Positions 36,269 through 40,872 of a DNA stretch of 64,000 nucleotides are shown one piece after another. Position 1 is the stretch's first letter, and each line of letters begins with the position of its first letter. The position numbers and the translations under genes were made by a program. The stretch is taken from sequence record OZ317122.1; one strand, given 5' to 3'. A model generated the notes under the pieces. The model saw nothing but the letters and a program-made list of their open reading frames with translations. It ran no database searches and had not been told where the DNA came from. The stretch is from a phage.

Positions 36269-36742
36269 TTATTTGATTTGTTTAGCAGACCAAATGCGGT
36301 CTTTAATAATTTTTTGGATGTCTTCAACATACTCAAGAGAGTGAACATGTGGGTTATCTTTGAAACTATAAGCACGAGCTAGCTTTTGGCCTTCAGTTTT
36401 GATTACTAAAAGCTCTTTAAGGATAGCTTCATATTTGGAGATAATTCCTTTAACAATATTTTTCTCTTGTGTGACTTTAGGATCTGCTTTAGGAGCAGGT
36501 TTACCTGAAGCCTTTGCAAAAGCAGCTCCAGTAGCAACTAAACTTTTCCAAGCCATACTAACTGCATTCCCTGTAAATCCTTCGGCTTTCATATCACGAG
36601 CAAATTGGAATCGTGATTCATCGGAAGCATCTTTATAGGAATATTTACCCGCGGCAATGGCAGCTTTTGCAACAGCTTGAATTTCAGTGCTAGATGCTTC
36701 ATTTAACACCGCTTCATTTAAAAATTGAGTATATGATTTCAT
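36269..36742 (-). CDS. internal-protein-like capsid-targeted protein (157 aa)
   Basis: N-terminus MKSYTQFLNE resembles T4 internal-protein leader with LxE protease-site motifs; own late promoter; flanked by terminators. Confidence 0.55.
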   Translation of the reverse strand: MKSYTQFLNEAVLNEASSTEIQAVAKAAIAAGKYSYKDASDESRFQFARDMKAEGFTGNAVSMAWKSLVATGAAFAKASGKPAPKADPKVTQEKNIVKGIISKYEAILKELLVIKTEGQKLARAYSFKDNPHVHSLEYVEDIQKIIKDRIWSAKQIK

Positions 36743-36778
36743 CTTATTTCCTGTTTTAATTCGGGGTTTTAATATACT

Positions 36779-36786
36779 TATTTATA
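36779..36786 (-). promoter_or_regulatory. late promoter TATAAATA
   Basis: Plus-strand tatttata about 37 nt upstream of ATG at 36742. Confidence 0.6.
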
Positions 36787-36789
36787 CTA

Positions 36790-36819
36790 AAAAGCCCCAA
36801 CCTTTCGGTCGGGGCTAAG
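36790..36819 (-). terminator. rho-independent terminator ending the tRNA/stable-RNA transcription unit
   Basis: Minus-strand RNA gccccgaccgaaagguuggggc followed by UUUUU. Confidence 0.7.
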
Positions 36820-36820
36820 C

Positions 36821-37131
36821 CTTGCGGCAACCTTGTCGGGGTTCCACCTGCTAAGGCAAGTGTTTGTACGAAACGCCGGGATTCGAACCCGGTTATTAAG
36901 CAGTTGACGCTACTCAATATTTTTAAAAGGCCATATCTCGACCATATCCGAACGTTCCGTCAAAAACGCTACTCGGCTTACGGCAAAGATATTTCCTCGA
37001 ATCGATAATTCGGTGCGCCGTTTCTGCTGTGATATAAGGGGACATTAACAAAACATAAAGATTTATTAATACCAGTCCTTAAACAGGGAACATCAGTCCG
37101 ACGACTTGCCGGTAGCGACCCGGCTTCTTGT
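36821..37131 (-). ncRNA. candidate stable RNA region between tRNA-Arg and terminator, containing a tRNA-like T-arm
   Basis: No ORF; minus-strand ccgggTTCGAATcccgg with pairing flanks cggaacg/cgtttcg but no proper anticodon arm. Confidence 0.3.
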
Positions 37132-37207
37132 CTGGTCGAGGCAGTAGGGATCGAACCTACGACCCAGGACTTAGAAGGTCCTTGCTCTTCCTTCTGAGCT
37201 ATGCCTC
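37132..37207 (-). tRNA. tRNA-Arg (anticodon TCT)
   Basis: Cloverleaf: acceptor CGAGGCA/TGCCTCG, anticodon loop CTTCTAA, T-arm GTAGGTTCGATCCCTAC, CCA encoded. Confidence 0.85.
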
Positions 37208-37211
37208 GTAT

Positions 37212-37286
37212 TTGGCGGACGTGATAGGATTCGAACCTATAACCAATCGCTTAACAGGCGATCGCTCTGCCATTGAGCTACACATC
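37212..37286 (-). tRNA. tRNA-Asn (anticodon GTT)
   Basis: D-stem GCTC/GAGC, anticodon stem ATCGC/GCGAT with loop CTGTTAA, T-arm ATAGGTTCGAATCCTAT, CCA encoded. Confidence 0.8.
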
Positions 37287-37290
37287 CAAA

Positions 37291-37377
37291 TTGGTGGGGA
37301 GTGGTGGAGTCGAACCACCCGAGTCGCAATGACAATGGATTTACAGTCCACACCGCTACCTCTACGGGATAACTCCC
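37291..37377 (-). tRNA. tRNA-Tyr (anticodon GTA), long variable arm
   Basis: Anticodon stem GTGGA/TCCAT with loop CTGTAAA; T-arm GGTGGTTCGACTCCACC; 87 nt; D-arm pairing less clean. Confidence 0.7.
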
Positions 37378-37387
37378 CAAATTAATT

Positions 37388-37462
37388 TGGTGGCCCTGGG
37401 TGGAATTGAACCACCATCTGGCGATTATGAGTCGCTTGCTTGAACCTTCCAGCTACAGGGCC
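37388..37462 (-). tRNA. tRNA with CAT anticodon (Met or lysidine-type Ile, as T4 tRNA-Ile)
   Basis: Anticodon loop CTCATAA; T-arm GGTGGTTCAATTCCACC; CCA encoded. Confidence 0.8.
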
Positions 37463-37463
37463 T

Positions 37464-37539
37464 TGGTGCTGATTGACGGAATCGAACCGCCGACCTTCTC
37501 ATTACAAGTGAGTTGCTCTACCTACTGAGCTAAATCAGC
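37464..37539 (-). tRNA. tRNA-Thr (anticodon TGT)
   Basis: D-arm TAGCTCAGTAGGTAGAGC, anticodon loop CTTGTAA, T-arm GGCGGTTCGATTCCGTC. Confidence 0.85.
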
Positions 37540-37544
37540 AAAAC

Positions 37545-37634
37545 TGGCGGAGGCGATAGGATTTGAACCTATGAGTCGCCGGAGCGACTGCCGGTTTTCA
37601 AGACCGGTGCATTAAACCACTCTGCCACGCCTCC
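37545..37634 (-). tRNA. tRNA-Ser (anticodon TGA), long variable arm
   Basis: Anticodon stem CCGGT/ACCGG with loop CTTGAAA; long variable arm; T-arm ATAGGTTCAAATCCTAT. Confidence 0.85.
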
Positions 37635-37636
37635 AG

Positions 37637-37710
37637 TCTCCGTGGCAGGATTTGAACCTACGACATTCTGCTCCCAAAGCAGACGCTCTACCAAACTGAG
37701 CTACACGAAG
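37637..37710 (-). tRNA. tRNA-Pro (anticodon TGG), 3' CCA not encoded
   Basis: Anticodon loop TTGGGAG; acceptor CTTCGTG/CACGGAG; only 2 nt separate it from tRNA-Ser. Confidence 0.8.
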
Positions 37711-37720
37711 TAAATTAAAT

Positions 37721-37794
<74 letters not shown>

Positions 37795-37799
37795 AAATT

Positions 37800-37886
37800 T
37801 GGTGCGAGAAGTGGGACTCGAACCCACAAGGAAATCATTCCGCAGCATTTTAAGTGCTGTGCCTTTACCAATTTGACCATTCTCGC
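37800..37886 (-). tRNA. tRNA-Leu (anticodon TAA), long variable arm
   Basis: Anticodon stem CAGCA/TGCTG with loop CTTAAAA; T-arm GTGGGTTCGAGTCCCAC. Confidence 0.85.
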
Positions 37887-37892
37887 GCTATA

Positions 37893-38501
37893 TTATTTAT
37901 TACGTGAAAAAGACTGTTCTATCAATTCTGGACACTTTCGTTCTATCCATTTTCTAGCTTTTTGTGGGCTTATACCTATTATTTTAGCAGCTTTACTAAC
38001 CCATCCAAATTTAGAATAATCGATTTTAACTAATTCTTCGTAAATTTCATCAGTTAAAATCTTTTCATTAATATTTACCAGTAAATGATATAATTTATTA
38101 TCATTAGCAATTTTAATGAATCTTTTATAGTTTCCGCCTTTACTTAAACCTAATGAAGTAATTGCAGATGATATAGTAGCCGAATTTAATAGTGCGTTTA
38201 AAATTTCTTCATCACTAACATTATAACGCTTTCTATTATTTTTAATATTTTTACCAGCAAAAGTATCAGTTTGCGAATGGCAATTTGGACATAATAATCT
38301 TAAATTTGATTTAAGATGATTTTTGTTATTTCCATCAATATGGTCTAATTGTAGAACAATATGCTTATTTTGCCATTTTGAAATTTTACAAATTGCACAC
38401 TCATATGGAAAAATATTTTCTTTTATTATTTTGTCTTTTAGCTTTCCTGTACTAAAATTTGGATGTTTTCCTTCAAAAATTTCAGCTAATTTAGTATCCA
38501 T
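37893..38501 (-). mobile_element. freestanding HNH homing endonuclease adjacent to tRNA cluster
   Basis: HNH/zinc motif LDHIDGNNKNH...LRLLCPNCH; trimmed to ATG at 38499-38501; stop 7 nt from tRNA-Leu. Confidence 0.7.
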
Positions 38502-38611
38502 AATATGATTCCCAATTATTAACAAAGGCTCTTAAGCAAGAACCCTTGATGATAGAGGGTATTAATCAGTGCGATATGAGTTAATAATAACAAATAATTC
38601 TTAAAGCATAT

Positions 38612-38902
38612 TTACCATTTATAATAATAATACATATTTACGATGCATTCAAGACCCAAAGGATTCTTGAAAATATCATATTCAAGAGGACCTTTTTCTG
38701 TTTCAATAAAGAAATCAAAATTTACTGTATTAAATTTACGTTCTTCCTTCACTAATTTAACTTGAGAAGATGAACGGTCAATGTAAACCTTTTCAACTTC
38801 AAAACATGTTAAAATGCCATAATCATTAATCAAAGCTTTAGCCGCGTCTTGATCATATTTATATCCATTTTCAATGGATGATACTTTCGCATAAAGAATC
38901 AT
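38612..38902 (-). CDS. hypothetical protein
   Basis: 96-aa ORF, ATG start. Confidence 0.4.
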   Translation of the reverse strand: MILYAKVSSIENGYKYDQDAAKALINDYGILTCFEVEKVYIDRSSSQVKLVKEERKFNTVNFDFFIETEKGPLEYDIFKNPLGLECIVNMYYYYKW

Positions 38903-38904
38903 TA

Positions 38905-39303
38905 TCAGCCTTCATCAACAATAGTGTGAGTATTAGCATTTACGATTTGCCACCAATCAAAGCGATTAGAATCCATCGGTTTGTTTTCATTTTCTTTGAT
39001 AATGTCACGGAGTTCATCTTCAGAGAATGCTTTAGCAATTAAATCGGTATACCCACCACGGGGATAATAATTATCACCTGCAAACAAAAGGAAATTTACC
39101 TTCCCGGAAGCAACATATGCTTCCTTAGGATACTTGTTTCCTGCGTGGTCAACCACTTCAATATAACGGTAAGGAATATCGGTTCTTTCAACCCATTGCC
39201 ATGCCGCCGCAGGGGAATCGAAAGCATCTACACCTAAACGATTATCTTCATCTTTAGACGGATTATTTTCGTAATCCGCATATACATAATATTCAACGTT
39301 CAT
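38905..39303 (-). CDS. hypothetical acidic protein
   Basis: 132-aa ORF, ATG start. Confidence 0.45.
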   Translation of the reverse strand: MNVEYYVYADYENNPSKDEDNRLGVDAFDSPAAAWQWVERTDIPYRYIEVVDHAGNKYPKEAYVASGKVNFLLFAGDNYYPRGGYTDLIAKAFSEDELRDIIKENENKPMDSNRFDWWQIVNANTHTIVDEG

Positions 39304-39560: not shown

Positions 39561-39780
39561 AAATTGATTTATTTTCTGCTGCCCATTTTTCAATAACTGC
39601 AGCAGGACCAGTAACAACAATTTTATCACCGTAATCTTCTGCGGCGAGTTGACCGAAATTATCTAATGCATCACGAAGAACTCCATGAGGCATTTCACCC
39701 ATTTTATCTTTCTTGCCAGTGTAAATAAACTCAACTTTTACATCAGCAGTTTCAGCAATAAATTCTTGGTAAGTTTTCAT
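39547..39780 (-). CDS. internal-protein-like capsid-targeted protein (77 aa)
   Basis: Starts MKTYQEFIAE, the canonical T4 internal-protein leader with IAE protease-site motif. Confidence 0.6.
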   Translation of the reverse strand: MKTYQEFIAETADVKVEFIYTGKKDKMGEMPHGVLRDALDNFGQLAAEDYGDKIVVTGPAAVIEKWAAENKSIFRKK

Positions 39781-39807
39781 TTTGATTTCCATTTGGTTTT
39801 GTTTTGA

Positions 39808-39865
39808 TAGGGTAATAGTATCACAACTAAAACCCTATGTAAACAACTTTGTGAAATTATTTTAA
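39808..39865 (-). promoter_or_regulatory. T4-type early promoter
   Basis: atagggtaatagtatcacaactaaaaccctat then gtaaacaactttgtgaaattattttaaatc. Confidence 0.5.
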
Positions 39866-40114
39866 ATCTTCTAATCGTTTCTTCATCTTAGAACCATTTT
39901 TAGCAATTTCTCCTGCATCGGAGCATAATGCTAAAAGTGCTTTAACTTTAGTTTGGTCTCCTTTAAAAGATGAAGGATCGACCGCAGCAGCAAGTTCTTT
40001 AATACGAGAGAAAAGACGCTCAGCTTCAGCTAAAGCCATTCCAAGCTTTACTTCCATACCGTGGGAAGATTCAGTGATAGTAGTTTTTGTAGCAAACTCT
40101 TTGAAAGTTTTCAT
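39857..40114 (-). CDS. internal-protein-like capsid-targeted protein (85 aa)
   Basis: Starts MKTFKEFATKTTITE; AGGAAA ribosome-binding site. Confidence 0.55.
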   Translation of the reverse strand: MKTFKEFATKTTITESSHGMEVKLGMALAEAERLFSRIKELAAAVDPSSFKGDQTKVKALLALCSDAGEIAKNGSKMKKRLEDLK

Positions 40115-40139
40115 TTTTATTTTCCTAATTAATTTTGAT

Positions 40140-40872
<733 letters not shown>

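Follow-up and report, generated by a model that had tools for sequence, protein, structure and literature searches.

The open reading frame at positions 37893–38501 (minus strand) of the window, by which we mean the whole 64-kb stretch of phage DNA analysed here (OZ317122.1), is best explained as a free-standing HNH homing endonuclease gene that has taken the tRNA-Gln slot with which the T-even tRNA operon begins, with a target that would include the segment it replaced; from comparison of the sequences, the probability of this reading is put at roughly 65%. The phage belongs to Tequatrovirus. Among its relatives the frame is present or absent at one locus between homologous flanks, and it lies outside any intron or intein, both as expected of a free-standing homing gene.

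The frame encodes 202 amino acids, from an ATG at 38501 to a TAA at 37895–37893 (coordinates include the stop codon), and has an alternative TTG start at 38525. Downstream of it, in the same orientation, lies an array of nine tRNA genes (37133–37886, minus strand; Leu, Gly, Pro, Ser, Thr, Met/Ile(CAT), Tyr, Asn, and Arg), the first of which is tRNA-Leu(UAA) (37800–37886, minus strand; found by both ARAGORN and Rfam). The tRNA transcription unit ends with homologues of the T4 small stable RNAs, rnaD (37011–37129) and rnaC (36867–37005), both on the minus strand, and rnaC is followed by a terminator-like hairpin (36793–36816). The upstream neighbor is a trna.2 homologue (38612–38902, minus strand). 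A preliminary description, made from the letters of the window, had the gene ending 7 nt before tRNA-Leu; the gene does adjoin tRNA-Leu, whose 5' end follows the stop codon after a spacer of 6 nt (37887–37892). The same description noted that tRNA-Gln is missing, and none of the nine tRNAs found in the 64-kb window is tRNA-Gln.

Comparison with T-even genomes lacking the insertion, proposed in the preliminary description, fixed both junctions. By blastn against T4 and against Yersinia phage PYPS2T, a segment of 618 bp (37890–38507, minus strand), in which the ORF is preceded by a 6-nt leader and followed by 3 nt, is absent from tRNA-Gln-bearing relatives. Homology between the window and T4 ends at 37889 and restarts at 38508; in place of the 618 bp, T4 has 64 bp of tRNA-Gln body (T4 locus L003 3961–4024), corresponding to positions 8–71 of the 73-nt gene. 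The suspicion that the insertion had removed or replaced flanking DNA was therefore justified. What is left of tRNA-Gln is, on one side, its 5' acceptor strand of 7 nt (TGGGAAT; 38508–38514, minus strand), 6 nt upstream of the ATG, and, on the other side, the last 2 nt of the gene, which together with the 1-nt Gln/Leu spacer form an AGC common to the window and T4 at the downstream junction (37887–37889, minus strand). The GGGA of the acceptor remnant may serve as a weak Shine-Dalgarno sequence for the HNH ORF. The tRNA-Gly/tRNA-Leu side of the window is 100% identical to T4 over 181 bp, up to 37889, and identity is 94% through the leader and trna.2, from 38508. PYPS2T, in which tRNA-Gln is present, is nearly isogenic with the window, at 99.7% and 99.6% identity over flanks of 6,090 and 6,114 bp; the alignments stop exactly at 37889 and 38508, the leader (38508–38624) is identical in the two phages, and homology is broken only by the exchange of tRNA-Gln for the HNH ORF.

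An endonuclease encoded in an intron of tRNA-Gln is ruled out, with just 7 nt and 2 nt of the tRNA left and no intron detected by Rfam; a scan of positions 36600–38700 returned no group I intron and no family besides tRNA. A second candidate was an RNA hairpin that would mask the ribosome-binding site, a feature of several T4 endonuclease genes. The leader folds no better than shuffled sequences (z = −0.68), and its sole strong hairpin, a conserved one of 11 bp (38523–38548, minus strand), is found in HNH and tRNA-Gln alleles alike. This candidate was thus not supported.

Directly after the trna.2 stop codon lies a T4 middle-promoter-like site (38584–38608, minus strand), with a MotA box TGCTTTA (38608–38602), a 12-nt spacer, and a −10 element TATTAT (38589–38584). 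The pair is kept in T4, and the record of phage Lutter annotates a promoter at this site. Broida and Abelson, as cited in PMC2330249, described a middle promoter just 5' of the T4 cluster from which a transcript runs through all tRNA genes. Just upstream of the MotA box, at 38616–38632, the window and T4 differ by a 3-nt repeat-length polymorphism of ATT/TAA units (TATAAATG in the window, CATAAATG in T4); the window version is one base off the T4 late-promoter consensus TATAAATA. Further upstream, two stretches of about 110 bp each (39760–39872 and 40094–40203), which lie at the 5' ends of two small internal-protein-like ORFs and in the sequence just before them, each share about 80% similarity with the PYPS2T counterpart of the other and appear to be paralogous leader or promoter repeats.

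The predicted product contains LQLDHIDGNNKNHLKSNLRLLCPNCHSQ and was recognized as an HNH nuclease from this motif in the preliminary description, an assignment that profile searches, named there as a possible refutation, upheld. PHROG 14736 ("HNH endonuclease") matches the protein over its full length (E = 5e-124), and its N-terminal 100 residues are matched by 13 more PHROG families annotated as HNH endonuclease and by one that carries the annotation endonuclease VII. The Pfam family PF01844 scores 17.3 bits against the window protein, below its gathering score of 21.4, and is matched at E < 0.01 by 15 of 17 aligned sequences (the window protein and 16 relatives), the best at 1.4e-6. Seven residues are invariant in this alignment, namely two CxxC pairs of zinc ligands (C35/C38 and C71/C74) and the H-N-H residues (H54, N66, and H75). 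The protein has the beta-beta-alpha-metal fold of the HNH/His-Me finger superfamily (the PF01844 clade). A PDB search with the sequence alone gave nothing significant (best E = 0.22); a whole-chain Foldseek search likewise gave no significant match, though its matches were HNH enzymes. At the level of family profiles and invariant residues, the HNH fold is established. The RefSeq label of the gene is already "HNH endonuclease".

The zinc-binding HNH domain is N-terminal (about residues 30–85) and is followed by a helical middle and by a C-terminal region that resembles a helix-turn-helix (about residues 160–195). The C-terminal 40 residues match helix-turn-helix families weakly (HTH_29, E = 0.014; P22_Cro, E = 0.024), one relative in the family matches several such families strongly, and the structure model of the protein has paired helices at 167–175 and 179–189. 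A role of the C-terminus in DNA binding is likely, as judged from these matches and the model.

In architecture and lifestyle, and in these only, the protein resembles T4 MobA–E: these are likewise free-standing rather than intron-encoded, belong to a T-even phage, are sporadic among relatives, combine an N-terminal HNH domain with a distinct, presumed DNA-binding C-terminal region, and are expected to nick their target, with recombinational repair following (PMC2988022). It differs in that no T4 mob gene lies in the tRNA cluster and in that it replaces a gene rather than occupying an intergenic site. A second likeness is to F-TflIV, the product of hegA in T5/BF23, which is about 48% identical over residues 16–92, the HNH domain, and which, like F-TflI and F-TflII, is encoded in the tRNA gene region of T5 (PMC2330249). 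The record of phage ACG-C40 notes a likeness to TflIV, and the GenBank notes or names of BP32 and Ec_O157kw point the same way. The match, however, covers 38% of the protein, and the C-terminal half, expected to set DNA specificity, is unrelated; orthology with F-TflIV is ruled out on these grounds. The BF23 hegA product is also longer (227 aa), and its gene, instead of abutting a tRNA, is separated from the nearest one downstream by about 950 nt. No publication was found that characterizes the window gene or notes the replacement of tRNA-Gln, nor were cleavage or inheritance studies of the protein or its close relatives.

Among 50,697 phage records, 446 have the contiguous tRNA-Leu/tRNA-Gln/leader allele and about 64 have the HNH allele (at least 95% identity over the full gene length), so that carriers make up about 64 of the roughly 510 records at the locus, or about 12% of Tequatrovirus records; RefSeq/GenBank duplicates are included in both allele counts. 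Universal presence in related phages, which the preliminary description had named as a refutation, is thus not what is seen. The carriers span at least 11 named Tequatrovirus species, including oe5505, lutter, deeone, c40, hy03, cm8, and ozark. Junctions are identical in the window and the eight other carriers examined, bar single-base differences in two, and this agreement points to one founding event in which the HNH ORF replaced tRNA-Gln. In phages without the HNH gene, tRNA-Gln itself exists as two alleles with compensatory changes in the anticodon stem, GCATAGCACTTTGACTGCTAGATGC in T4 and R5505, and GCACTGGATTTTGATTCCAGGATGC in RB14 and others.

Diversity around the insert was compared in nine carriers. 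Mean pairwise diversity is 0.0077 for the HNH ORF, 0.020 for the leader, 0.044 for trna.2, 0.027 for trna.4, 0.024 for 57B, and 0.134 for trna.3; only the tRNA-Gly/Leu block is as low as the HNH ORF. The trna.3 homologue (38905–39303) is by far the most diverse gene of the neighborhood (about 0.13–0.15), and many genome pairs cannot be aligned across it. HNH-positive and HNH-negative genomes each include both alleles at 38533, 26 bp from the insert, and both tRNA-Pro haplotypes, about 200 bp away, and the cassette has therefore recombined onto different backgrounds very near its ends. The two haplotypes of tRNA-Pro (window 37636–37710) differ strongly, at about 12 positions in 75 nt; one is found in the window, PYPS2T, Lutter, SH_GT, and HY03, the other in T4, RB14, OE5505, and others, and their distribution is independent of the HNH state. 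The HNH ORF is AT-rich and of foreign composition: its GC content (25.8%) is among the lowest 0.2% for stretches of its size (609 nt) across the 64-kb window.

These data bear on the possibility that the HNH ORF and tRNA-Gln are alleles of an old locus, moved about by ordinary recombination or by breaks that other nucleases such as SegB make, with no drive of their own. Flanks are mosaic in every phage compared, SegB cuts the tRNA-Gln and tRNA-Leu genes in vitro (PMC2330249), and syntenic homologues in divergent T4-like phages have diverged to the same degree as resident genes. Such passive exchange is nevertheless considered improbable, as the ORF is 3–6 times less diverse than the adjacent protein genes, which fits a young spreading allele and not an old balanced one, one junction pair is common to all Tequatrovirus carriers, and the catalytic residues are strictly conserved. 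T-even phages recombine freely, and the shuffling of the cassette across haplotypes is for that reason no proof by itself of nuclease-driven spread. A co-conversion tract around the insert was sought and none was detectable, because tRNA-Leu and tRNA-Gly hardly vary across the 17 genomes; where the window and PYPS2T differ closest to the junctions, the SNPs occur in one genome only.

All nine HNH ORFs are full length, with no frameshift or internal stop, and their 13 variable codons comprise 10 synonymous and 3 non-synonymous ones; as read from these codons, the ORF is under purifying selection. The zinc and catalytic residues are unchanged in the nine copies. That the gene is an inactive relic of a former homing endonuclease, in the course of being lost, is very unlikely in the face of this conservation, even though the Pfam HNH score of the window protein is itself under threshold and defunct homing endonucleases such as I-TevIII are known in T4 (PMC2988022). 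Taken together, the sequences fit a cassette that is a young, functional, horizontally spreading element.

Under the favored reading, homing of the HNH gene, the ORF would be transcribed from the MotA-dependent middle promoter of the tRNA cluster and form the beginning of the tRNA precursor; RNase P, by cutting where tRNA-Leu starts, 6 nt beyond the stop codon, would create the 3' end of the HNH mRNA. In a mixed infection the enzyme would nick or cut the tRNA-Gln-bearing allele of a relative, and recombinational repair templated by the carrier genome would convert tRNA-Gln to the HNH ORF, with the leader and trna.2 as the homology arm on one side and tRNA-Leu/Gly on the other; inheritance of the locus would then be biased, as the preliminary description suggested. 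The carrier is proposed to be immune because the 64 bp holding or completing the recognition site are gone. Intronless homing of this kind is the standard pathway for the Seg and Mob enzymes of T4 (PMC2988022; PMC2330249), among which MobA and MobE are free-standing HNH homing endonucleases that nick their targets (PMC2988022). As the flanks are identical (181 bp against T4; the leader against PYPS2T), any sequence-based discrimination between the two alleles would depend on bases in the replaced tRNA-Gln segment or at the junctions. If the target lies within the tRNA-Gln gene, one of the two anticodon-stem alleles might resist. In two of the syntenic relatives from uncultured T4-like phages, tRNA-Gln stands intact directly upstream of the gene (14 nt upstream in one of the contigs), and a target inside the tRNA-Gln body is for that reason not a given.

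The preliminary description had further placed the HNH gene at the site that SegB occupies near the tRNA genes of T4, which the gene order contradicts. Transcription in T4 proceeds through trna.2, the promoter and leader, tRNA-Gln, Leu, Gly, Pro, Ser, Thr, Ile, segB, Arg, rnaD, and rnaC, which puts segB deeper in the cluster, flanked by tRNA-Ile and tRNA-Arg about 1 kb downstream, and the HNH gene in the tRNA-Gln slot at the cluster head. In the window, the slot that matches T4 segB holds tRNA-Tyr and tRNA-Asn, the arrangement of RB14; the T2L cluster likewise has Met, Tyr, and Asn tRNAs (PMC2330249). The HNH protein has no GIY-YIG match among Pfam and PHROG profiles and no segB-like DNA is found anywhere in the window, which, with the different slot, rules out a SegB homologue or an occupant of the SegB site. 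The HNH gene and segB are thus independent residents of different slots, and phage HY03 has both.

In other respects SegB is a close parallel. It belongs to the same operon and shares a transcript with the tRNAs; its ORF runs up to the 5' end of tRNA-Arg, the tRNA that follows, whose maturation has been proposed to trim the segB mRNA; and it homes within the T-even tRNA cluster and cuts tRNA genes, its homing replacing tRNA genes of the recipient (PMC2330249). The differences are the fold (GIY-YIG against HNH) and the slot (tRNA-Ile/tRNA-Arg against tRNA-Gln). The window has tRNA-Asn (37213–37287) and lacks segB; if this pattern holds, its phage would be a recipient in SegB homing and a putative donor in HNH homing.

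Other tRNA slots were also seen to hold ORFs. CM8 (L011 5180–5788), RB68 (L016 5267–5875), and AR1 (L015 5267–5917) have an ORF annotated as a homing endonuclease between tRNA-Gly and tRNA-Ser, where the window and other phages have tRNA-Pro; the AR1 copy is annotated as segD-like, and the CM8 copy, the only one compared, is a GIY-YIG protein 78% identical to the SegB-like HY03 gp001 over residues 1–120. This looks like a second case of a nuclease ORF in a tRNA slot. OE5505 (L007 5129–5611) and Lutter (L001 2129–2611) have a 160-aa ORF between tRNA-Met/Ile(CAT) and tRNA-Ser, in the tRNA-Thr slot of the window, ACG-C40, and JoYop; its C-terminal part aligns with the C-terminus of the CM8 GIY-YIG protein (32% over 115 aa), and its helix-turn-helix-like motif YANAINVSHTQARK resembles AAKIIGISPQKARKWIE of the C-terminus of the window HNH protein.

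Beyond Tequatrovirus, three contigs of uncultured T4-like phages encode full-length homologues with 57–68% identity, in a syntenic position that follows the gp1, 57A/57B, and trna.x genes and precedes a tRNA array. No cultured phage with homologues in this range was found, the nearest isolates being the Tequatrovirus carriers. Identity of the neighboring genes in these contigs is 45–55% for gp1 and 69–76% for 57B; the HNH homologues have diverged about as much as these residents, and the lineage would accordingly be an old resident of the locus at the subfamily level. From these comparisons, the HNH lineage is old at that level, yet sporadic and young within Tequatrovirus. In one uncultured T4-like contig, the array is headed by a full-length copy and also contains, at a more internal position, a partial HNH paralogue (L005 7695–7958; 50% identity to residues 6–95).

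More distant relatives (41–44% identity) lie inside tRNA arrays of unrelated contigs, with stop codons that overlap or abut the next tRNA. Of the 80 closest relatives in IMG/VR (77 distinct ORFs), a tRNA lies within 2.5 kb of 74 and at least three do so for 62, nearly always on the strand of the ORF. The 5' end of a same-strand tRNA lies within 20 nt of the stop codon in 24 of the 77 ORFs, against 4.5 expected under uniform placement in the flanks (binomial p of about 7e-12, which overstates the significance because the contigs are not independent). The commonest downstream neighbor in the family is tRNA-Leu(UAA) (nine cases), as in the window. Upstream there is no clear preference for a tRNA partner across the family, and tRNA-Gln stands directly upstream in two lineages only.

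This association with tRNA arrays, together with the purifying selection and the intact ORF in all carriers, would also suit a nuclease kept for a phage function, either breaks in the tRNA array for remodelling or amplification, as made by SegB, or some other DNA transaction, with spread through benefit to the phage. Amplification of the tRNA locus driven by SegB helps T6 to escape Septu, OLD, and ToxIN, and the 2026 report of this effect poses the question whether HNH homing endonucleases act as SegB does (PMC13096335). Maintenance for such a function is nonetheless judged unlikely: the gene is carried by a small part (about 12%) of Tequatrovirus records at the cost of one tRNA, neither the window nor the carriers examined showed an amplified or duplicated tRNA array, and purifying selection is equally expected of an actively homing element. 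A broader and more speculative proposal, which we hold to be possible but doubtful, is that the protein belongs to a widespread, uncharacterized HNH lineage specialized for phage tRNA arrays, which would recognize tRNA-gene junctions, take single slots, and have its mRNA trimmed by tRNA processing, and whose breaks would be a main cause of tRNA gain, loss, and possibly amplification.

As a clean case from nature, the locus shows a probable homing endonuclease gene in exchange for a whole tRNA gene rather than inserted between genes. With PYPS2T as a near-isogenic partner, it lends itself directly to a homing cross and a target-site assay. The more useful lead is the residence of the family in tRNA arrays, where about one-third of the 77 ORFs end within 20 nt of the next tRNA. 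The occupation of the Gln slot by an HNH gene and, in sister phages, of the Pro slot by GIY-YIG genes and of the Thr slot by a further ORF suggests that the turnover of phage tRNA repertoires is driven by nucleases in general. These repertoires are now known to matter for the evasion of defences that cleave tRNAs, and the family-wide residence in tRNA arrays comes at a good time, with SegB reported in 2026 to remodel tRNA loci against tRNA-targeting defences (PMC13096335). If the proposed lineage of tRNA-array specialists is real, it would be a parallel to the GIY-YIG enzyme SegB, with consequences for the escape of phages from host defences that target tRNAs.
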